24,757 nucleotides of DNA from an uncultured Flavobacteriaceae bacterium (GTDB lineage: Bacteria > Bacteroidota > Bacteroidia > Flavobacteriales > Flavobacteriaceae), in NCBI GenBank assembly GCA_938041595.1, contig CALITN010000051.1, positions 1-24,757 on the forward strand, written 5' to 3'. Within the stretch, counting starts at the first letter, position 1. Each line of letters opens with the position of its first letter. Positions 5,245 through 18,815 of this stretch are shown here, in pieces. Below the pieces are notes generated by a model. The model did no database searches. It saw only the letters and a program-made list of their open reading frames with translations, and was not told the origin of the DNA. The position numbers were made by a program, and so were the translations under genes.

Positions 5245-6711
5245 ATGCTTACCCCTTCCACCATCCTTGGGTTGATCCTCACCTACTTTGGGGTATTGAT
5301 TGCTATGTCGTACTGGACTGGTCGTCAAGACAACAATCAGGTTTTTTACAAAGCCAACAAAAGTGCTCCTTGGTATTTAGTCGCCTTTGGTATGGTAGGA
5401 GCCTCGCTTTCGGGCGTTACTTTTATTTCCGTTCCCGGGTGGGTTGCGGACACGCAACTCACTTATTTTCAAGTCGTGCTAGGGTATCTACTTGGGTATT
5501 TTGTTGTTGCTTTTGTATTACTCCCCCTCTACTACCGTTCCAATATCACTTCCATTTATGAATATCTGGGGCAACGATTAGGCCGAAGTAGTCATTTTAC
5601 AGGAGCTGCTTTCTTCTTTATTTCAAGGGTATTGGGAGCCGCTTTCCGCTTGTTTTTAGTAGCCTTAGTATTACAGCAATTTATTTTTGAACCTTGGGGT
5701 GTTCCCTTTGAAATAACCGTGGTGTTATCTATTGCATTAATTTGGCTTTACACCTTCAAGGGGGGGATTCAAACCATCATTTGGACGGATACCTTACAAA
5801 CACTATTAATGCTCGTTGCAGTGGTTTTATCAGTCATATACCTCCTACAAGAAATGGACTGGACCCTAGCCTCGTTTATGAAATCAAGCGCCTTTGAACA
5901 ATACAATAAGATGTGGGTCACTGATGATTGGCTTGCTCGAAACTATTTCCTAAAGTCCCTAATAGGTGGTGCGTTTATCACCATCTGTATGACAGGTTTG
6001 GATCAAGATATGATGCAAAAAAACCTGACCTGTCGCAATCTTAAAGAAGCCCAAAAAAACATGATTAGCTTTAGTTTTGTTCTAGGGGGAGCTACTTTTT
6101 TATTCCTACTGCTTGGAATTCTTCTTTACAGTTTTGCACAGCAAAAAGGAATCGAAATACCCCTAGTGGAAGGGAAAGCCAATACCGATCTACTTTTCCC
6201 AGAAATCGCCCTAAAAGGAGGCTTGGGCGTTGGGGTGGCTGTTACCTTTATTCTAGGGTTAATTGCTGCAGCCTATAGCAGTGCCGACAGTGCGTTGACT
6301 TCCTTAACCACCTCTTTCTGTGTGGACTTTTTGAATCTAGAAAAACGATCTGAAAACGACCAAATACGGATTCGAAAACAAGTTCATATCGGAATGAGTA
6401 TTGCCTTGATTGTAGTTGTCATCCTATTCAAATACGTCCTTGATCGCAATGTGATTGACGGACTGTTGACGGTTGCCTCCTATACCTATGGCCCCTTGCT
6501 CGGACTGTTTGCTTTTGGAATGTTTACCTCCCATCAGGTTCAGGAAAAAAAGGTAATCTGGGTGGCATTGATCGCGGTTGCTATCATTTTCTGTTTGGGG
6601 CAAATTCCAAGTGAATCACTGGGTGGCTATCAAATTGGATATGAACTGCTTCCGCTCAACGGATTGTTGACCTTTCTGGGTTTAGTATTGATTCGTCGAA
6701 AGGAGGACTAG
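5245..6711 (+). CDS. Sodium:solute symporter (SSS/SLC5) family transporter, substrate unknown
   Basis: Many hydrophobic segments; '[12 protein letters not shown]', '[11 protein letters not shown]', '[13 protein letters not shown]', 'DQDMMQKNL', '[14 protein letters not shown]'. Confidence 0.92.
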
Positions 6712-7050
6712 CGTACAGGCATTCTCAGTAGCAATTCCATTTTCTCGTAGTACTTTGGAAAAGCTGGGGTTTTCCGTACCGGGGTTGAACAACACGCGTT
6801 CTGGCCGAAGTGCTAGCAGCCATTCCCGATAGCCTTCTTGATGTTGTGGACTCAAATAGAGGGTGACCGTATGAACTGCTGTAGTGACTTGATCTGGATC
6901 TGTTTGAATGGTAATATCCTCCACCTGTCCTTCTTGCCTTCCCAAAGCCACCACTGGATGTCCTGCCGCGCGCAGTCGCTGAATGGCTTTATAGGCATAT
7001 CGCTCCACCTTGGTGGAGGCACCCAATACAAGTGTCGTTTGTGGGATCAT
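6682..7050 (-). CDS. CoA-binding protein (YccU-like)
   Basis: 'TLVLGAS', 'HTVTLYL', 'VLFNPGTEN', '[12 protein letters not shown]'. The ATG directly abuts the fabH TAA. Confidence 0.88.
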
Positions 7051-8058
7051 TTACCAGCGGATAATAGAACTCCCCCAAGTAAATCCACTGCCAAAGGCTG
7101 CGAGAACCACCAAGTCACCCTCTTGGATCTTACCCTCTTCCCAAGCTTCAGTCAAAGCGATTGGAATGGAGCCTGCTGTGGTATTTCCATACCGTTGAAT
7201 ATTAGTATACACTTGATCGTTTCCAAGACCAAACTTCTTTTGCACAAACTGAGATATACGCAAATTCGCCTGATGTGGAATCAACATATCTATAGCATCA
7301 GTGGCCAATCCGTTGGTTGTTAAACCTTCCATAATGACTTCTGAAAAACGAACGACAGCATTTTTAAAAACCAACTGCCCATTCATATAGGGATAATAGG
7401 ATTCATCAGTAGGGTCGTTAGCCTCTATAATTTCTGGCACCCAACGGTTGGTGCTAGGGCCTATCAATGAAAGTTCTTCAGCGAATTTTCCTTCGGAATG
7501 CAGATGGGAAGACAAAACACCCTTCTTAGGATCTTCTTCGCGAGTGATTACTGCCGCTCCGGCACCGTCGCCAAAAATCACTGACACTCCCCTTCCTCGG
7601 GTGGTCATATCCAAGCCTCCGGAGTGGTTTTCAGAACCAATGACCAGTACGTTTTTATACATCCCCGTTTTGATGAATTGATCCGCAGTGGAGAGGGCAT
7701 AAATAAAACCCGAACATTGATTCCGAATGTCCATTGCGGGACAGGTAGGAATCTCTAAAAGTTCTTGTACCAAAACACCTGACCCTGGGAAATAATAGTC
7801 AGGACTCAGAGTCGCAAAAAGGATTAGTTCAATATCTTGGGGAGTGAGCCCCGCTCGTTCAATGGCGATTCGTGCCGCAGCAGCACCCATGCTTGAAGTG
7901 GTGTCACCAGATCCTTTTTTGATATGACGGCGTTCTCGGATCCCCGTTCTTTCTTGGATCCATTCATCGGAGGTCTCCATTATTTCGGATAAATCCTGAT
8001 TTGTTACTATGTTTTCAGGGAGGTATTTGCCCAGACCGGAAATTCTTGATTGGTACAT
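7051..8058 (-). CDS. fabH: 3-oxoacyl-ACP synthase III (FabH family)
   Basis: 'ETSDEWIQERTGIRERR', catalytic Cys in 'RNQCSGF', 'FGDGAGA', 'PHQANLRI', 'YGNTTAGSIP', 'FGSGFTWG'. Confidence 0.93.
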   Translation of the reverse strand: MYQSRISGLGKYLPENIVTNQDLSEIMETSDEWIQERTGIRERRHIKKGSGDTTSSMGAAAARIAIERAGLTPQDIELILFATLSPDYYFPGSGVLVQELLEIPTCPAMDIRNQCSGFIYALSTADQFIKTGMYKNVLVIGSENHSGGLDMTTRGRGVSVIFGDGAGAAVITREEDPKKGVLSSHLHSEGKFAEELSLIGPSTNRWVPEIIEANDPTDESYYPYMNGQLVFKNAVVRFSEVIMEGLTTNGLATDAIDMLIPHQANLRISQFVQKKFGLGNDQVYTNIQRYGNTTAGSIPIALTEAWEEGKIQEGDLVVLAAFGSGFTWGSSIIRW

Positions 8059-8089: not shown

Positions 8090-8120
8090 AAAAAAACACC
8101 CTACAAAATGTAGGGTGTTT
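8090..8120 (-). terminator. Rho-independent terminator of the TetR-fold/ABC1 pair
   Basis: 12-bp perfect stem aaacaccctaca (8094-8105) / tgtagggtgttt (8109-8120) with a 3-nt loop. The A-run at 8090-8096 gives a U-tract on the minus strand. Confidence 0.85.
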
Positions 8121-8147: not shown

Positions 8148-9458
8148 TTAAACAAAATTCATGTAATTATTTATGGTGACTTTCGCTTTGAGATCAAAAA
8201 GTAAACTGTAAAGACCGAAAAAGGTTCGGTTGATGTAGATAAAGTGCTCAGAGCCACGATTACCATTCATTTTTCGCCACTCTTTATCCTCAGTAAATTC
8301 CTGACTTAAAGAAGCAATTTGATTCCAGAAAACCGCATCTGAAAAATCAAAGGTGTCGGTGTGAAATGGCAAGGTTAAAAGACAAAGCATTCGGTTGAAT
8401 AGATCAGTGAAAAAGGCAATTTCCTTGGTACTGTCTGTGGGAGTAAGAATTTCCAATGATCTTAAAATATTTTGAAATTTTTCAGGACTATTCAGGTTTT
8501 CCTCTTTAGATAATTCAAAATAAGGCTGGTAAAAATCTTCCGGAATTTGTTTGATACAACCAAAGTCCAAAGCAATCAATTCATGTGTTGGGGAAATCAA
8601 AAAATTCCCAGGATGGGGATCGGCATGCACTTTTTTGAGGCAATGCATTTGAAACATATAAAAGTCCCATAGGCTCTGCCCTAGTTTTTGATTGATCTGA
8701 GGATCTGTATTATCCTGATCGGTATATTCGGAGAGATGAATACCTTCCATCCAATCCATGGTTAATATGCGTTTGTTGGACCATTCTGGATAATACTTTG
8801 GGAAACTAAGATTCGGTACTCCAGAGCATTCCTCTGTGATTTGACGGCTTTGCTCCAGTTCCAATTCGTAATCGGTTTCTTCGAGAAGTTTATTTTCGAC
8901 TTCTTTAAAAAACTTATCAACGTCCTGCCCTTGCAGGTTAAACATACGAACGGCTACCGGTTTGACGATACTTAAATCAGAGCCGATACTGTTTGCCACT
9001 CCTGGGTATTGAATTTTCACAGCAAGTTTTTTCCCATTCTTTGTTGCCTGATGTACCTGACCGATACTGGCAGCATTGATAGATTGAGCAGCAAACGTAT
9101 CAAAAATGACCTCGGGGTCGGCTCCTAAATTTTTACGTATTAATTGTTTGACCAATGGAGTTGAAAGCGGCGGCACTGAAAATTGTGCCAAGCTAAATTG
9201 TTCCACATAGGCCCGGGGCAGCATGTTTTTTTCCATGCTAAGCATTTGTGCCATTTTCAAAGCACTGCCCTTAAGGCTTTTCAGTCCGTCATAAATATCT
9301 TTCGCATTTTCTTCATCCAAAGCTTCTTTGGAAATGTCTCGATTCAGCGCTTTTCCGCTGTAGTATTTGAGGTAATTCCCTCCTACTTTGACACCAGTAG
9401 CTACCAGTTTGGTCGCCCGTTCAATTTTGTTGGTTGGTATGTAATCGAGAGTTTTCAC
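8148..9458 (-). CDS. ABC1/UbiB (AarF) atypical protein-kinase-like protein, COQ8/ADCK3-like motifs
   Basis: 'ALKMAQMLS' (KxGQ variant), 'AASIGQVH', 'AVKIQYPGVANSIGSD', 'ETDYELE', 'HADPHPGNF', 'LDFGC'. GTG start abuts the upstream TAA. Confidence 0.9.
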   Translation of the reverse strand: MKTLDYIPTNKIERATKLVATGVKVGGNYLKYYSGKALNRDISKEALDEENAKDIYDGLKSLKGSALKMAQMLSMEKNMLPRAYVEQFSLAQFSVPPLSTPLVKQLIRKNLGADPEVIFDTFAAQSINAASIGQVHQATKNGKKLAVKIQYPGVANSIGSDLSIVKPVAVRMFNLQGQDVDKFFKEVENKLLEETDYELELEQSRQITEECSGVPNLSFPKYYPEWSNKRILTMDWMEGIHLSEYTDQDNTDPQINQKLGQSLWDFYMFQMHCLKKVHADPHPGNFLISPTHELIALDFGCIKQIPEDFYQPYFELSKEENLNSPEKFQNILRSLEILTPTDSTKEIAFFTDLFNRMLCLLTLPFHTDTFDFSDAVFWNQIASLSQEFTEDKEWRKMNGNRGSEHFIYINRTFFGLYSLLFDLKAKVTINNYMNFV

Positions 9459-10109
9459 TTAAGCGTTTACAAATTTTTCTTTCCACAAAAACTTTCCGAG
9501 ATCCAAAATAGAATCCAAAGGGGTGTTATCGAAAACATCAAAGGCAGTGTGCACTGACTTTTCAATGGCAGCATCTGTTTTTTCAAAGTTTTCCGATCGA
9601 TCTGTTATCCAAAATTTGAGCAAGAACATCAGTTGTACCCAAGCCGCTTCGGAAAACAACTTTGGTGGATGCTGCTGGAAACGCGAGTCTTTATCAGCAT
9701 TGCCTTCTTCAATTAAATCAGTGGTAAATGCTTTGAAGTGGCGACGTAAGCCCTTCAGATAAACCAAATCCTTCATATTATTCATTTCCTGACGCAAGGC
9801 AAAAAGAACATAGGATCGGTTTAACAACAACAACTCAAAAAAAGTAAAATAAAAACTAAGAAGCTTTTCTTTTCGTCCTCCCTTTTTGAAATTTTTATCC
9901 TTTTCCAATACCGACATCGTATTGATGAAAAAAGCATCCCAAATGTATTCGCGAACGGCATCAAGGGAACCAAAAACACTATAGAATTCTTTTTCCTCCA
10001 TTCCCGCAGCTTGGCAAAACTTGTAGACCGACTTAGGATAGGATTCCTGCGCTAAGACATGATCCGTGTAGTGAGTTAATATTTTGGTTCGAAGTTCTTG
10101 TGGCTGCAT
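9459..10109 (-). CDS. TetR-fold protein (degenerate HTH + TetR C-terminal domain)
   Basis: 'SVYKFCQAAGMEEKEFYSVFGSLDAV' resembles a TetR HTH (..A..AG.....FY..F.S...). 'EKLLSFYFTFFELL' and 'FWITDRSENFEKTDAAIEKSV' are typical of the Bacteroidota TetR-C proteins I recognise next to ABC1 kinases. Confidence 0.75.
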   Translation of the reverse strand: MQPQELRTKILTHYTDHVLAQESYPKSVYKFCQAAGMEEKEFYSVFGSLDAVREYIWDAFFINTMSVLEKDKNFKKGGRKEKLLSFYFTFFELLLLNRSYVLFALRQEMNNMKDLVYLKGLRRHFKAFTTDLIEEGNADKDSRFQQHPPKLFSEAAWVQLMFLLKFWITDRSENFEKTDAAIEKSVHTAFDVFDNTPLDSILDLGKFLWKEKFVNA

Positions 10110-10141
10110 AAGTTGTTTTTATATTTTACAATATTACAAAA

Positions 10142-10171
10142 TGTTTAATTATTTTTAAATATGGTTAAACA
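10142..10171. promoter_or_regulatory. Candidate operator: inverted repeat TGTTTAA-N16-TTAAACA with imperfect 10-11 bp repeats
   Basis: TGTTTAA at 10142-10148 and TTAAACA at 10165-10171. On the minus strand TTTAACC, TTTAAAA and TTAAACA recur at 10 and 11 bp spacing. The region is very AT-rich, so chance is possible. Confidence 0.35.
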
Positions 10172-10194
10172 ATAATATTTTGTTAATTTTTTGA

Positions 10195-10235
10195 TGTCAA
10201 AATGTCACTTACTTTGATTTGGTATTTTTTTTGAA
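10195..10235 (+). promoter_or_regulatory. Putative sigma54-spaced promoter with upstream TGTCA tandem repeat for htpG
   Basis: TGTCAaaaTGTCA at 10195-10207. TTGGTA...TTGA with GG (10221-22) and GA (10233-34) separated by exactly 10 nt, the -24/-12 geometry. Confidence 0.45.
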
Positions 10236-10260
10236 CAGCTAGTGGAAAATCATAGAAACG

Positions 10261-12138
10261 ATGTCAAAAGGCAAAATCAATGTAGCGGTCGAAAATATTT
10301 TCCCGCTAATCAAAAAGTTCTTGTACAGTGATCACGAAATATTTCTTCGAGAACTGATCTCCAACGCAACCGATGCCACGAATAAGTTGAAGCACTTAAG
10401 CAGCCTTGGGGAAGTCAAAGGCGACTTAGGCGATTTGACCTTGGAGGTTAAAATTGACGCCAAAGGCAAGAAGCTCCATATCATCGATAAAGGGGTCGGA
10501 ATGACTGCCGATGAGGTAAACAAATACATCAATGAGGTCGCCTTTTCGGGGGCTGAAGAATTCTTAGAGCAATATAAAGAAAGTGCCAAAGACTCAGGCA
10601 TCATTGGTCATTTCGGTCTGGGCTTCTATTCTGCTTTTATGGTAGCCAAAGAGGTAGAAATCATCACCAAATCGTTTAAGGACGAGCCGGCAGCTCACTG
10701 GACTTGTGATGGTTCTCCAGAATACGAACTCAAAGAATCCGACAAAAAAGAACGCGGTACGGAGATTATCCTTCATATTGATGCAGACTCCAAAGAATTT
10801 TTGGAAGAAAGCCGTATTGGAGCTTTGCTGAGCAAATACAATAAATTCATGCCCGTTCCCATCAAATTTGGAACGCGCGAAGAAAACCTGCCACTCCCAG
10901 AGGACGCTGCTGACGATGCCAAAGCCGAAACGGTCACTGTGGACAACATCATCAACAATCCAAACCCTGCTTGGACCAAAGCCCCTTCGGATCTCAAAGA
11001 GGAAGACTACAAAGGATTCTACAGAGAGCTCTACCCAACTCAATTTGAGGAGCCTTTATTTAACATCCACCTCAATGTGGACTACCCCTTCAATCTGACT
11101 GGAATATTATATTTTCCAAAATTGAACAATGACCTCAACATTCAAAAAGACCGCATTCAGTTATATCAAAACCAAGTTTTTGTGACCGATAATGTGGAGG
11201 GGATTGTCCCTGAGTTCTTAACCCTTTTGCGAGGTGTCATTGATTCTCCTGATATTCCATTGAATGTGTCTCGAAGCTATTTACAAGCCGACGGTGCAGT
11301 AAAGAAAATAAGCAATTATATCACACGCAAAGTGGCTGATAAATTGAGTAGCCTGTTCAAAAAAGACCGCAAAGGTTTTGAGGAAAAATGGAACGACATC
11401 AAGGTGGTTATTGAATACGGAATGCTTAGCGAGGACAAGTTCTTTGAAAAAGCAGAAAAATTTGCCTTATTTCCCACTACTGATGGAGATTATTTCACTT
11501 TTGAAGAACTCCAAGAAAAAGTAAAAGACAATCAAACCGATAAAGACGGAAAACTGATTTTGCTCTACGCATCCCAAGTTGAAGAGCAACACAGCTATAT
11601 TCAGGCAGCCAAAGACAAAGGTTACACCGTTTTGCTTTTGGATTCTCCCATTATCAGCCATTTGATTCAAAAACTAGAAACCAGTAAAGAAAATCTCAGC
11701 TTTGCAAGAGTGGATGGAGATGCTATCGAAAACCTCATCAAAAAAGACGAGGCCACCGTTTCTAAGCTATCGGAGGAAGAAATAGAAAAACTCAAACCCA
11801 TCATTGAGGAAGTGGTCACTGATGAAAAGTACAGCGTACAACTGGAAGCTATGGACAGCCAGGGGCTCCCTTTTGTGCTGACCCAACCCGAGTTTATGCG
11901 ACGCATGAAAGAAATGCAGCAAACCGGAGGAGGGATGATGGGAAGCTTCCCAGAAATGTACACGCTATTGGTGAATACCAATCACAGCTTGGTAGGACAG
12001 ATTTTGAATACTAAAACAGCCAAAAAGCGAGAGCGTTTAATCAAACAAGGTTTGGATTTAGCTCGCTTGTCACAAAACCTTCTTAAAGGGGAAGAATTAA
12101 CGGCTTTTATTCAAAGAAGTTTGGATTTGATCAAATAA
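10261..12138 (+). CDS. htpG: Molecular chaperone HtpG (Hsp90)
   Basis: 'LYSDHEIFLRELISNATDA', 'DKGVGMT', 'IGHFGLGFYSAFMVA', 'RGTEIILH', 'GVIDSPDIPLNVSRS'. Confidence 0.97.
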   Translation: MSKGKINVAVENIFPLIKKFLYSDHEIFLRELISNATDATNKLKHLSSLGEVKGDLGDLTLEVKIDAKGKKLHIIDKGVGMTADEVNKYINEVAFSGAEEFLEQYKESAKDSGIIGHFGLGFYSAFMVAKEVEIITKSFKDEPAAHWTCDGSPEYELKESDKKERGTEIILHIDADSKEFLEESRIGALLSKYNKFMPVPIKFGTREENLPLPEDAADDAKAETVTVDNIINNPNPAWTKAPSDLKEEDYKGFYRELYPTQFEEPLFNIHLNVDYPFNLTGILYFPKLNNDLNIQKDRIQLYQNQVFVTDNVEGIVPEFLTLLRGVIDSPDIPLNVSRSYLQADGAVKKISNYITRKVADKLSSLFKKDRKGFEEKWNDIKVVIEYGMLSEDKFFEKAEKFALFPTTDGDYFTFEELQEKVKDNQTDKDGKLILLYASQVEEQHSYIQAAKDKGYTVLLLDSPIISHLIQKLETSKENLSFARVDGDAIENLIKKDEATVSKLSEEEIEKLKPIIEEVVTDEKYSVQLEAMDSQGLPFVLTQPEFMRRMKEMQQTGGGMMGSFPEMYTLLVNTNHSLVGQILNTKTAKKRERLIKQGLDLARLSQNLLKGEELTAFIQRSLDLIK

Positions 12139-12568: not shown

Positions 12569-13183
12569 ATGACCGAACGACATCTTCATTGGGAAACCAT
12601 ATACCAAAACAAAGAATTTGAAGCTTGTAGCTGGTATCAAGACATTCCAAAAACCTCATTAGAATTGATTGCCACACTTGAGCTCCAGAAGGACGCGGCA
12701 ATTATAGACGTAGGTGGAGGCGAAAGTTATTTAACAGCCTTCTTGGATAAAAAAGGGTTTTCCCAACTTTCTGTATTGGATATTTCACCCACAGCCTTGA
12801 AAAAGAGTCAAAAAAAAATGGGCGGCAAGGCTGCCAAAGTAACATGGATCGTATCAGATGTCACGCACTTTGAAACCGAACGACATTATGACCTTTGGCA
12901 CGATCGAGCAACTTTTCATTTCCTTCGAGATCCGGAAGATATAACTGCCTATATAGCTACGGCTGGAAGAAGAGTTCGTTCTGGAGGTTATGCCATTATA
13001 GGCACCTTTTCACCGCAAGGACCTACACGATGCAGCGGCATCACTATTCAACAATACAGTATAGATGCCCTTGCCGAATGCTTTAAAGCGGATTTTGACC
13101 TCATTGCCAGTCAAGAAAACAGCCATCAAACACCCTTTGACACAAAACAAGCCTTTAGCTTTTGTACCTTTCAAAGAAAATAG
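12569..13183 (+). CDS. Class I SAM-dependent methyltransferase (TehB/TPMT-like small-molecule type)
   Basis: Motif I 'IIDVGGGES', 'VLDISPTAL', 'WIVSDVT', 'YDLWHDRATFHFL', 'GPTRCSG'. Confidence 0.88.
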   Translation: MTERHLHWETIYQNKEFEACSWYQDIPKTSLELIATLELQKDAAIIDVGGGESYLTAFLDKKGFSQLSVLDISPTALKKSQKKMGGKAAKVTWIVSDVTHFETERHYDLWHDRATFHFLRDPEDITAYIATAGRRVRSGGYAIIGTFSPQGPTRCSGITIQQYSIDALAECFKADFDLIASQENSHQTPFDTKQAFSFCTFQRK

Positions 13184-13197
13184 TGTCGACAATACCC

Positions 13198-13806
13198 ATG
13201 CAGGAATTATTCGCATCTCCATCCTTCCCGTGGCAACCTGACCTCCCCGATGCGGAACTGCATTACTATCCCCATTTTTGGTCTCGAAAAGAAGCCGATG
13301 CTTTGTTTGAGCAGCTAAAAAATGAAACACCCTGGCAGCACGATCCGATCACCGTTTTCGGAAAAACCTATATGCAACCACGACTGACAGCCCTATATGG
13401 CAAAAACCCAAAACCCTATTCCTACTCTGGGATAACCATGAATCCCCACCCTATGTCAAACACCCTTATGGAGGTGCTTCAAAAAATCCAAACTGTGGAC
13501 CCCCATGCCTACAATACCGTTTTACTCAACTTATACCGCAATGGAAAAGACAGCAACGGTTGGCATGCAGACAATGAAAAAGAATTGGGACCTCATCCAC
13601 GCATTGCCTCGGCTAGTTTTGGGGAAGAACGCTTTTTCCACTTCAAACACCAAAGCGACAAGCAACAGCGGTACAAATTACGTTTGGATCACGGCAGTCT
13701 ACTAATTATGGGAGGGGCCATGCAAGAACACTGGTTGCACCAAATTGCCAAAACAGCACGCCCGATCAGGGAACGGATTAACCTTACCTTTCGGAAACTC
13801 TATTAA
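13198..13806 (+). CDS. AlkB-family 2OG-Fe(II) dioxygenase, ALKBH2/3-like clade
   Basis: 'QPRLTALYG', 'LLNLYRNGKDSNGWHADNE' (HxD), 'GSLLIMGGAMQEHWLHQI' (distal His), 'RINLTFR'. Start moved to ATG 13198. Confidence 0.9.
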   Translation: MQELFASPSFPWQPDLPDAELHYYPHFWSRKEADALFEQLKNETPWQHDPITVFGKTYMQPRLTALYGKNPKPYSYSGITMNPHPMSNTLMEVLQKIQTVDPHAYNTVLLNLYRNGKDSNGWHADNEKELGPHPRIASASFGEERFFHFKHQSDKQQRYKLRLDHGSLLIMGGAMQEHWLHQIAKTARPIRERINLTFRKLY

Positions 13807-17313: not shown

Positions 17314-17344
17314 GAAAGATAGAAACTTATTTGGGTTTAGACAA
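17314..17344 (-). promoter_or_regulatory. Probable promoter for the 90-aa hypothetical gene
   Basis: Minus strand TTG (17344-42), 20-nt spacer, TATCTTTC (17321-14; one mismatch). Confidence 0.45.
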
Positions 17345-17795
17345 CGGTTTCCTTCTTTAGGGTTTTAAGTGCTTTATAAATGTGACTGATTGGATTAAGG
17401 CTATCATACGCCAAAATCAATTTTCCTTCAATATCAAAAACAAAGCTGACACGACGGCTTAGGATTCCTAAGAATTGTTTGTTGATTTTAAAAGCCTTTT
17501 GCAGGGATTTATCTGAATCTGAAAGCAAGGAAAATGGTAGGTCAAAACTTTCAGAAAAACGTTCGTGACTCCTAAGAGAGTCTGTGCTGATTCCAATAAC
17601 CGCCGCACCATAATCCACAAAATCGGTGTATTTATCGCGAAAAGAACAAACTTCCGCAGTACACCCAGGGGTGTAGTTTTTGGGGTAAAAGAAAACCACT
17701 AAAGGCTTTTTTCCGATAAATTGATCACTCTTCACAAGCGTTCCTTTTTGATCGACCCGATCAAAAAAAGGAAGGCGTTCTCCTTCTTTCAACAT
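17337..17795 (-). CDS. bcp: Peroxiredoxin, BCP/PrxQ subfamily
   Basis: 'VVFFYPKNYTPGCTAEVCSFRD' (PxxxTxxC with a resolving Cys 5 residues later), 'GISTD', 'LLSD', 'RRVSFVFD'. Confidence 0.9.
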   Translation of the reverse strand: MLKEGERLPFFDRVDQKGTLVKSDQFIGKKPLVVFFYPKNYTPGCTAEVCSFRDKYTDFVDYGAAVIGISTDSLRSHERFSESFDLPFSLLSDSDKSLQKAFKINKQFLGILSRRVSFVFDIEGKLILAYDSLNPISHIYKALKTLKKETVV

Positions 17796-17798
17796 AAT

Positions 17799-18209
17799 TT
17801 ATTCTCCTGCGTATTTAACAAAATTTCGTGGGGTTTCATACAAAACTACCTCTAGGTCTTGGGTGGTTTCGAGATGGGGTCTTAGTTTGTTGTAAATCAC
17901 CACAACAATATTTTCTGCCGTGGGAATGAGATTTTGAAACTCCGGCACTTGAACATTTAAATTTTTATGATCAAAGGCATCTTCCACCTCAGATTTGATC
18001 AAGTCCCGCAATACTTTCATATCCATTACATAGCCCGTAATAGGATCAATATTTCCCGTTACATGGACGATGAGTTCGTAATTATGGCCGTGGTAGTACT
18101 CGTTGGAGCATTTGCCAAAGACAGCTTCGTTTTGAGACGCGTCCCAATCGGCACGATGTAAGCGATGAGCAGCATTAAAATGAGCTTTTCTAGAGACCGT
18201 AACGCGCAT
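17799..18209 (-). CDS. queD: 6-carboxytetrahydropterin synthase / 6-pyruvoyl-tetrahydropterin synthase
   Basis: 'HFNAAHRL', 'GKC...YHGHNYEL', 'GYVMD', 'FDHKNLN', 'PTAENI', 'LYETPRN'. TAATG overlap with the idi stop. Confidence 0.9.
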   Translation of the reverse strand: MRVTVSRKAHFNAAHRLHRADWDASQNEAVFGKCSNEYYHGHNYELIVHVTGNIDPITGYVMDMKVLRDLIKSEVEDAFDHKNLNVQVPEFQNLIPTAENIVVVIYNKLRPHLETTQDLEVVLYETPRNFVKYAGE

Positions 18210-18742
18210 TAGTTCTGTGAGTTTAAGGATTGAATATGGGCATAGAATCGATCAAAAATGATTTTAAACCATTCGGTGTACTGCTCTGGTTGCTCAGTCA
18301 TATCCACTGCAATAGCTTCCATAGAAGCCCATCGAAAGGCCGCGACCTCTTCCGTGTTGATCACCGGATCCGTATCGGAATACCCTAAGAGTACATGATC
18401 GAGTTCGTGTTCAGTAAGTCCGTTGTCAAAAGGAGCTTTGTAGATGAAAGCAAAAAGTTCCGTGAGATTCGTTTGCATCCCCATCTCCTCTTGCAAACGT
18501 CGGTGTCCAGCCTCCAAATTGGATTCTCCCATCCGCTGATGACTACAACAGGTATTAGTCCACAATCCTGGGGAATGGTATTTTTTCCAGGCGCGTTGTT
18601 GGAGGAGCAATTCTCCCTTTTTATTTAGGACAAATACCGAAAAGGCACGGTGTAGCACCGCCTTTTCATGTGCTTCCATTTTGGGCATAGTACCCAAGGG
18701 TCGATCGTTGGTATCAACGAGGATTACTTCTTCTTCTTTCAT
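18209..18742 (-). CDS. idi: Isopentenyl-diphosphate delta-isomerase type 1
   Basis: 'KMEAH...LHRAFSVF', 'LLQQRA..KYHSPGLWTNTCCSH', 'RRLQEEMG', 'EHELDHV', 'NTEEV', 'YTEWFK'. Start moved to ATG 18742 (MKEEEVILVD), downstream of an exact promoter. Confidence 0.95.
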   Translation of the reverse strand: MKEEEVILVDTNDRPLGTMPKMEAHEKAVLHRAFSVFVLNKKGELLLQQRAWKKYHSPGLWTNTCCSHQRMGESNLEAGHRRLQEEMGMQTNLTELFAFIYKAPFDNGLTEHELDHVLLGYSDTDPVINTEEVAAFRWASMEAIAVDMTEQPEQYTEWFKIIFDRFYAHIQSLNSQN

Positions 18743-18751
18743 GCAATAGAT

Positions 18752-18784
18752 CAAAAATACCGAAATCTTCATCAAAAACCCAAA
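18752..18784 (-). promoter_or_regulatory. Canonical -33/-7 promoter for idi-queD-bcp
   Basis: Minus strand TTTG (18784-81), 21-nt spacer, TATTTTTG (18759-52, exact), 9 nt before the ATG. Confidence 0.7.
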
Positions 18785-18815
18785 TCCCATGTAGGTGCCC
18801 CTGCTAATTTTCAGC

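Follow-up and report, generated by a model that had tools for sequence, protein, structure and literature searches.

Across Bacteroidota, a UbiB/ABC1-family atypical kinase/ATPase and the TetR-fold protein encoded directly upstream of it (hereafter, the kinase and the partner) form a deeply conserved, co-inherited two-gene module. The pair was found in a 24,757-nucleotide (nt) stretch of DNA from an uncultured Flavobacteriaceae bacterium (hereafter, the window; positions 1–24,757 of contig CALITN010000051.1, assembly GCA_938041595.1), whose metagenome-assembled genome (MAG; 1.26 Mb, 66% complete) contains each of the two genes once. In addition, we report that a 30-bp palindrome upstream of the kinase-partner operon is shared with loci of the carH-crtI-crtB and photolyase type. 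Both the existence of the module and its gating by light in Flavobacteriaceae have good support. We propose, with a rough probability of 0.45 for the reading as a whole, that in this light-gated module the TetR-fold partner serves as a COQ9-like, ligand-binding or sensing subunit that works with the ATPase.

A co-inherited gene pair in Bacteroidota

Gene presence was compared in a sample of 401 Bacteroidota genomes, with kinase orthologues (at least 226 bits) clearly apart from paralogues (130 bits or less). The partner was present in 120 genomes and the kinase orthologue in 122, with both genes in 120, the kinase alone in two, the partner alone in none, and neither gene in the remaining 279. 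Of the genomes from the window's own family, the four without the partner are without the kinase as well. In 48 of the 49 loci fetched from the phylum sample, the kinase immediately follows the partner on its strand; the gap between the two genes ranges from −17 to +190 nt and overlaps of −1 or −4 nt are common. Among 78 named loci (including Flagellimonas, Zobellia, Aquimarina, Flavobacterium, Winogradskyella, Dyadobacter, Hymenobacter, Mucilaginibacter, and Pedobacter), the partner is located directly upstream of the kinase in 71 and within 900 nt of it in 75. This adjacency is far beyond chance, in agreement with an earlier note on the same DNA that had described the genes as a two-gene unit, and it holds in Rhodothermia-type genomes, where kinase identity is just 34–39%. 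No paper on the kinase-partner gene pair was found in the literature searched.

In Mucilaginibacter-type loci (L141, L143, L147, L155), 650–860 nt separate the partner from the kinase, which suggests that one gene was inserted between them in this lineage. Apparent fusions of the two proteins did not hold up on inspection: in two loci with 662-amino-acid (aa) frames (L013, L041) a stop codon separates the genes on translation, and the long open frames of high-GC f50 genomes lie in a different frame from the partner open reading frame (ORF). No fusion cluster was present among the ESM-Atlas neighbours.

The operon and its signals are arranged in the window as follows.

9459–10109, minus strand: partner gene, an ORF with an ATG start, encoding the 216-aa TetR-fold protein
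8148–9458, minus strand: kinase gene, an ORF with a GTG start, encoding the 436-aa UbiB/ABC1-family atypical kinase/ATPase
9456–9461, minus strand: stop/start junction, read from the sequence as TAA (9461–9459) and GTG (9458–9456) with 0-nt spacing
8094–8120, minus strand: terminator-like hairpin (12-bp stem and T tail), 27 nt past the kinase stop and before fabH
10110–10260, no strand assigned: divergent intergenic region of 151 nt, shared with htpG and containing the operon promoter and the palindrome

The ORFs, the 0-nt junction, and the hairpin with its 12-bp stem bear out the description of two abutting genes with a terminator of their own. The GTG start of the kinase agrees with the N-termini of its orthologues (MKT[IL]D.IPT). 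The peptides that had been quoted for the kinase (AASIGQVH...AVKIQYPGVANSIGSD and ALKMAQMLS) and for the partner (FWITDRSENFEKTDAAIEKSV) were all located in the ORFs.

Family and predicted structure of the kinase

We conclude that the kinase is an intact and soluble member of the UbiB family with a COQ8A/MABP-1 fold, because the modelled structure matches, the active-site residues are invariant, and no transmembrane (TM)-like segment is present. The protein belongs to the Pfam ABC1 family (PF03109: 179.5 bits versus a cut-off of 22.9; E = 8e-53), and it scores far below the cut-offs of UbiB proper (TIGR01982: 152.8/487.6 bits; PRK04750: 125.7/667 bits) and of the MABP-1 family (NF050082, NCBIfam ATPase_MABP1: partial match of 133.2 bits versus 800). 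With the window kinase as phmmer query, the best match in the PDB was MSMEG_1954/MABP-1 (113 bits), followed by Rv3197 (104 bits), COQ8B (98 bits), and COQ8A (88/83 bits). Escherichia coli UbiB scored 75 bits, and long TM-bearing paralogues from Bacteroidota scored 85–129 bits.

In a Foldseek search with the AlphaFold2 model (pLDDT 84.6), human COQ8A ranked first (4ped; E = 2e-18; TM-score 0.72/0.80; 392 columns) and was followed by MSMEG_1954 and Rv3197, with ordinary kinases appearing only at E ~1e-5 and a TM-score of ~0.3. The COQ8A/MABP-1 fold spans ~390 of the 436 residues, including the N-terminal KxGQ domain, and identity to MABP-1 over the structural alignment is ~23%. HMMER alignments show kinase blocks that are close to those of COQ8A/B (aaasigqvh, amkiqypgvaqsinsdv, alklgqmls) and much less similar to those of E. 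coli UbiB (VIKVIRPDILPVIKADL). The catalytic loop, HADPHPGNF, is nearer to UbiB (HADMHPGN) and MABP-1 (HGDAHPGNF) than to COQ8 (TDPNWSNF). Motif likeness is thus mixed, and the assignment of the kinase to the COQ8 branch in the earlier note is a possible one: the sequence blocks are COQ8-like, the catalytic loop is UbiB/MABP-like, and the top sequence score goes to MABP-1.

Invariant positions in 35 kinase orthologues include the Ala-rich loop A130-S-x-G-Q-V-H136, Lys148, Asp280, Asn285, and D298-F-G, together with the following motif.

9246–9257, minus strand: KxGQ-motif position, which reads K-M-A-Q (K68, A70, and Q71, all three invariant)

The glycine of KxGQ is replaced by Ala in 35/35 orthologues across classes, whereas it is Gly in the COQ8, MABP-1, and E. 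coli UbiB alignments. Judging from these alignments, KxAQ is a signature of the kinase subfamily. No TM-like window was detected in the kinase, such segments being present in E. coli UbiB and in the long Bacteroidota paralogues.

TetR fold of the partner and its links to COQ9

The sequence profile identifies the partner as a member of the TetR family. Pfam TetR_C_23 (PF17931) covers residues 82–208 (152.5 bits versus 29.1; E = 8e-45) and matches all 38/38 members of the partner family. No match to Pfam TetR_N (PF00440) was found in the window partner at E ≤ 1; at E ≤ 0.1, this domain matches 3/38 family members and is undetected in 35/38. Partner loci were also absent among the TetR_N matches in three genomes, and the precomputed domains of 120 partner homologues comprise TetR_C_23 alone, without TetR_N. 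Source databases label these homologues as 'TetR family transcriptional regulator C-terminal domain-containing protein' or 'heat-shock protein'.

The AlphaFold2 model of the partner (pLDDT 92.5) consists of helices only and shows a TetR fold that has a three-helix N-domain and an additional C-terminal helix. Its top folds in Foldseek, a check that had been suggested earlier, are 3c07, FadR, EthR, DesT, and FabR, with COQ9 missing from the top 50/30 (pdb, Swiss-Prot). An exhaustive structural alignment to 48,161 chains ranked 3c07 first (Z = 16.5), then 3lwj, 3ni7, and Thermus FadR (Z = 13.7). Human COQ9 was placed at rank 5 (4rhp; Z = 13.7; 180 residues aligned) and again at rank 7 (6awl; Z = 13.3), with 16–17% identity to the partner, and Bacillus FadR reached Z = 13.6. 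The fold is therefore close to solved COQ9, but FadR and other TetR proteins score the same or higher.

Sequence comparisons gave a similar picture. The COQ9 family model TIGR02396 (NCBIfam) aligned to residues 166–191 only, with 13.9 bits versus a threshold of 74.55 (E = 0.037), and Pfam COQ9 (PF08511) matched 6/38 family members weakly and below threshold (best E = 0.015). Among the other named clusters of the ESM-Atlas, the nearest ones contain PF08511 (COQ9; score 0.94; 184 shared features), and a shape search of the Atlas with the partner returned just its own family and generic TetR proteins. Single-sequence PDB searches with the whole partner and with its last 80 residues yielded no COQ9 chain and only chance-level matches. 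The proposal of a COQ9-like partner thus retains several weak links, but the family thresholds lie well above the scores, and the TetR proteins 3c07, FadR, and FabR are equally near or nearer.

The strongest conservation in the partner falls on a motif of the C-terminal domain.

9558–9611, minus strand: most conserved partner motif, W167-x2-D170-x-S172-x3-E176-x-T178-x5-K184 (FWITDRSENFEKTDAAIEK), at the alpha8-alpha9 junction

Among 38 sequences, D170 is invariant and W167, S172, E176, T178, and K184 are conserved in at least 90%. It is this W..D.S..FE.T stretch that gives the weak match to the COQ9 family. The D-x-S-x-x-F-E-x-T pattern that had been taken as a COQ9 trait is indeed the most conserved feature of the family, but the Streptomyces TetR 3c07 carries the same motif (YWIFDRTEGRERS), and therefore it is not COQ9-specific.

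The helix-turn-helix (HTH) region is atypical in Bacteroidia, where it reads E-x-[ED]-F-Y-x-x-F-x-S-F-E. Its mean net charge is −2.4, compared to +0.3 in 18 canonical TetR_N regions from the same genomes, and the lysine of the F-x-x-K pattern is replaced by F/L in all Bacteroidia members. The terminal helix (residues 199–214) is moderately amphipathic (hydrophobic moment 0.54; family mean 0.38) and not exceptional. Prediction of a partner-kinase complex (score 0.17, mark 0.32) speaks neither for nor against contact.

A shared palindrome and the predicted light regulon

Two elements were recognized in the intergenic region upstream of the partner, and the palindrome recurs in other loci.

10142–10171, no strand assigned: 30-bp palindrome TGTTTAACCATATTTAAAAATAATTAAACA with arms TGTTTAA/TTAAACA and an N16 spacer, 33–62 nt upstream of the partner ATG
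10172–10200, minus strand: near-consensus sigma70-like sequence TTGACA-17-TATTAT (11/12), which ends exactly at the palindrome edge
Loci with the regulon palindrome: L052, L056, L060, L054, L058, L059, L062, L066, L063, L064, L053, L057, L065

The usual promoter of Bacteroidota consists of a −33 TTG and a −7 TAnnTTTG element, and TAnnTTTG-like boxes were found behind the right palindrome arm in orthologous loci. With at most one mismatch, the palindrome occurs at −44 to −76 in 17/23 loci of the window's family, compared to a background of five matches (at most two mismatches) in 214 kb. It is also present in ~28 of the named loci, and genomes contain 2–10 copies versus 0–2 for a control pattern.

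Further copies precede crtI-crtB, fasciclin-domain lipoproteins, DUF2867-short-chain dehydrogenase/reductase (SDR) fusion proteins, and small ORFs (142/153 aa) with DUF2805 or photolyase. Immediately upstream of the crtI site, a gene combines a MerR HTH with a B12-binding domain, i.e., it is of the CarH/LitR type. The palindrome beside carH-crtI is kept in family genomes without the partner-kinase pair, and for this reason it can be ruled out as the operator of the TetR-like partner itself. The published CarH repeat is TnnACA, arranged in known operators as tandem direct repeats (PMC9304148). The palindrome arms fit this repeat, and we predict that the palindrome is a CarH/LitR-type operator whose binder would be such a MerR-B12 protein. 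The kinase-partner operon is thus a predicted member of a CarH/LitR regulon, as it shares its putative operator with the crt locus and its probable orthologues in Dokdonia respond to light by induction (see below).

The neighbourhood survey that the earlier note had suggested was informative, with crt and photolyase genes found both near the pair and behind the shared palindrome. In one genome, carH-crtI-crtB-x-x-photolyase adjoins the partner-kinase pair. Other genomes, including those of a second family and belonging to several genera, contain clusters of the type pair-(SDR)-cryptochrome/photolyase-DUF2805, and DUF2867-SDR, photolyase, DUF2805, or the 142-aa ORF lies within 2.5 kb of the pair in many named loci. 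Co-occurrence of the pair with PF00494 (carotenoid synthesis) was uninformative, because nearly all genomes (384/401) match. In Flavobacteriaceae, the predicted regulon would unite the kinase-partner operon with crtIB, the photolyase cluster, SDRs, and fasciclin lipoproteins.

A second exact copy of the palindrome exists in the genome of the window (G000:C133:903-932; L067:903-932). It is flanked by a DUF2911 protein and a 155-aa ORF without a Pfam match (containing GPYSLWHHKHF), and the predicted light regulon may extend to this site. The 155-aa ORF is unrelated to the 142-aa regulon ORF.

Light induction in Dokdonia

In the transcriptome of Dokdonia MED134 (bioRxiv 10.1101/2023.12.25.573297, Table S2), MED134_03409 (hypothetical) and MED134_03404 (ABC1 family) are light-induced, with log2 fold changes at 10 °C of 2.69 for the former and 2.28 for the latter, and of 1.16 and 1.38, respectively, at 18 °C. 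Each gene has five entries in this table. It also names an adhesion lipoprotein, an SDR, MerR-crtI-crtB-crtZ, and the operon for cryptochrome/photolyase; neither fabH (MED134_03399) nor MED134_03414, a very abundant gene, appears in the light-induced list (10.1101/2023.12.25.573297). The order fabH-ABC1-hypothetical-abundant gene in Dokdonia equals fabH-kinase-partner-htpG in the window, and MED134_03404 and MED134_03409 are probable orthologues of the kinase and the partner by gene order, not by sequence. Neither gene was discussed by the authors of the preprint (10.1101/2023.12.25.573297). The predicted regulon agrees with, and would explain, the published light-induced lists.

Neighbouring genes and upstream motifs in other lineages

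The operon is bordered in the window by the following genes.

10261–12138, plus strand: htpG
6682–8058, minus strand: fabH (KAS III) and a CoA-binding-domain gene, beyond the terminator

The string fabH-kinase-partner was also found in 10/80 named loci and in Dokdonia (MED134_03399–03409). Downstream of htpG, a methyltransferase and a 2-oxoglutarate-Fe(II) oxygenase gene (AlkB-like superfamily) overlap by 22 nt (12569–13806, plus strand), and a minus-strand string at 17337–18790 encodes a peroxiredoxin, PTPS, and a NUDIX gene.

Other lineages carry different motifs upstream of the pair. In Rhodothermia-type loci (L046, L047, L192, L198, L204), a conserved CGAAC-N16-TCGTT is located ~40–60 nt upstream; it resembles a promoter of extracytoplasmic-function sigma factors (GAAC ... 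CGT) and, at the same time, forms an inverted repeat (AACGAA / TTCGTT). This motif suggests a different, stress-type control of the same operon in the Rhodothermia-type class. Loci of family f12 (L003, L013, L014, L016) share [TC]AAACC-N16/17-G[GT]GTTAT upstream of the partner and past the upstream terminator, a motif that could serve the operon as a further alternative-sigma promoter. A perfect 19-bp palindrome, CTTTCAAATATTTTGAAAG, lies at about −105 from the partner start in a single genus of family f5 (L026, L029, L030). As a family-wide operator it was rejected: it is not found at the locus in a second f5 genus, and its loosened pattern is common.

Proposed role of the module and alternative explanations

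In the proposed mechanism, a MerR-B12 photoreceptor repressor of the CarH/LitR type would occupy the palindrome in the dark and keep the operon repressed. In the light, the operon would be expressed along with crtI-crtB, the photolyase/cryptochrome genes, SDRs, and fasciclin lipoproteins, and the abutting stop and start codons would tie translation of the partner and the kinase together. The TetR-fold partner would bind a hydrophobic isoprenoid or acyl ligand and cooperate with the kinase/ATPase in handling membrane prenyl lipids under photo-oxidative stress; it would not be the main repressor of the operon and would have lost DNA binding. We favour a ligand-binding subunit because of the acidic, atypical HTH, the conservation focused on the C-terminal domain, the lack of an operator of its own, the strict co-inheritance, and the kinship to COQ9/FadR-type proteins. 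Judging from the genomic context, the ligand would be an isoprenoid or acyl lipid with a connection to light stress. Carotenoid intermediates are more likely than menaquinone, since crt and photolyase genes, rather than men genes, make up the shared regulon and the surroundings of the pair. A plausible history is that an ancestral regulator-target pair gave rise to the module, the regulator having acquired a role at the protein or lipid level in Bacteroidia, or having retained no other.

Several observations weigh against this interpretation, and most of them suit a conventional regulator and its target, in which the partner would be an acyl-CoA- or lipid-responsive, autoregulating repressor, the kinase its target, and CarH a second layer of control in Flavobacteriaceae. 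TetR-family homology extends over the HTH, as the family profile aligns to solved TetR proteins including this region (3c07, E = 2.5e-10; FadR, ~1e-8), and the N-domain is conserved, its HTH as much as the remainder of the protein. The nearest characterised folds are those of the repressors FadR, FabR, DesT, and EthR. Deep-branching Rhodothermia-type orthologues have a canonical-looking helix (G-x-[ST]-A-S-x-[IL]-Y-x-x-F-P-N-K-K), some of them matching TetR_N, and the charge ranges of partner HTHs and canonical TetR proteins overlap. A regulator is often the first gene of the operon that it controls, and the partner is the first gene here. The genus-limited perfect palindrome of family f5 would fit an operator of the partner. 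For the light gating itself, known CarH operators are tandem direct repeats and the palindrome is an inverted pair, carH was not detected in the window's own MAG (66% complete), and the Dokdonia genes were matched by their order.

However, Flavobacteriaceae loci show no conserved second operator beside the CarH-type palindrome, and the f5 palindrome is not kept in the second genus. The HTH is acidic, lacks the conserved Lys in all Bacteroidia members, and is missed by Pfam TetR_N. One-to-one co-inheritance with frequent overlaps at phylum depth is also, by our judgement rather than by measurement, tighter than expected for a regulator and its target. A conventional repressor has a considerable, though not the leading, chance of being correct. 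Somewhat doubtful, in turn, is the narrower proposal that the Bacteroidia partner is a functional COQ9 analogue that binds an isoprenoid lipid (some form of carotenoid or menaquinone, or a product of photo-oxidation), cooperates physically with the COQ8-like ATPase, and no longer acts as a repressor.

Another explanation is that the pair handles xenobiotics or antibiotics as MABP-1 (Rv3197) does, the ATPase neutralising a hydrophobic drug or photosensitiser that the TetR-fold protein senses. MABP-1/MSMEG_1954, an ATPase, binds macrolides and confers resistance (PMC8696161, PMC6208485). It is the best PDB sequence match of the kinase (113 bits), ATPase_MABP1 gives a partial match (133 bits), and drug sensing is frequent among TetR proteins. 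The score is nevertheless far under the family cut-off (133 versus 800), the structural alignment has ~23% identity, the neighbourhood consists of light-response and carotenoid genes rather than efflux or resistance genes, and the inducer is light, all of which make this explanation improbable. That the two genes are functionally unlinked neighbours merely sharing a transcript is highly improbable, with nothing specific in its favour and with near-perfect co-occurrence and co-loss, as well as adjacency across classes at 34–39% kinase identity, against it.

The actual role of UbiB-family proteins (COQ8, ADCKs, ABC1Ks) is a long-standing question with disease links. The present data place a COQ8-like ATPase and a dedicated COQ9-related TetR-fold protein in organisms that make no ubiquinone. 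If the ligand-subunit interpretation is correct, the COQ8/COQ9-type partnership would be a general device for handling prenyl lipids that is not restricted to ubiquinone, and a B12 photoreceptor would switch this device on by light, alongside carotenogenesis and photolyases. Because the module is kept in genera amenable to genetics (Flavobacterium, Zobellia, Dokdonia, Pedobacter, Hymenobacter) and seems to be switched on by light, its ligand, interaction partner, and phenotype are directly testable.

Comparison with known systems

The mitochondrial COQ8A/ADCK3 and COQ8B, which act in coenzyme Q biosynthesis, resemble the kinase in whole-protein fold and have near-identical AASIGQVH and KIQYPGVA.SI.SD blocks. 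The kinase differs from COQ8 in having HADPHPGNF instead of TDPNWSNF and KxAQ instead of KxGQ, in the absence of a TM helix, and in its predicted light-gated operon. Unlike COQ8 hosts, the host makes menaquinone and not ubiquinone. For Dokdonia, men genes are listed (10.1101/2023.12.25.573297). MABP-1 (Rv3197/MSMEG_1954) is, like the kinase, soluble and ~440 aa long with an HxDxHPGNF loop, whereas genomic context and inducer are different.

COQ9 and the bacterial COQ9 family (TIGR02396/PF08511) share with the partner a TetR-like fold and an atypical HTH. COQ9 binds isoprenoid lipids and has an amphipathic C-terminal helix that binds membranes; its known direct partner is COQ7 (complex Q), not COQ8. 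FadR (Bacillus/Thermus), FabR, and DesT, which are among the closest folds together with 3c07, 3lwj, and 3ni7, are acyl-CoA-sensing repressors that hold long hydrophobic ligands in the C-terminal domain. They possess a canonical, Pfam-detectable TetR_N and known operators, whereas the partner family mostly lacks a detectable TetR_N and has no known operator.

In the CarH/LitR regulons of Myxococcus, Thermus, and Bacillus, as in the loci described here, a MerR-HTH and B12 gene adjoins crtI-crtB and the binding site overlaps the promoter. Those regulons use tandem 11-bp direct repeats, whereas the two arms of the 30-bp palindrome are inverted around N16, with a third copy inside at some sites, and the regulon predicted here takes in a UbiB-family kinase operon. 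No paper reporting such an operon in a CarH/LitR regulon was found in the literature searched. The nearer ESM neighbours include ABC1 clusters from streptophytes. The ABC1K proteins of plant and cyanobacterial plastoglobules are UbiB-family kinases with ties to high-light stress and to the homeostasis of carotenoids and prenyl lipids (cf. PMC8956952). Compared to these, the module described here belongs to a non-phototroph, has a dedicated TetR-fold partner, and is predicted to be gated by a B12 photoreceptor.

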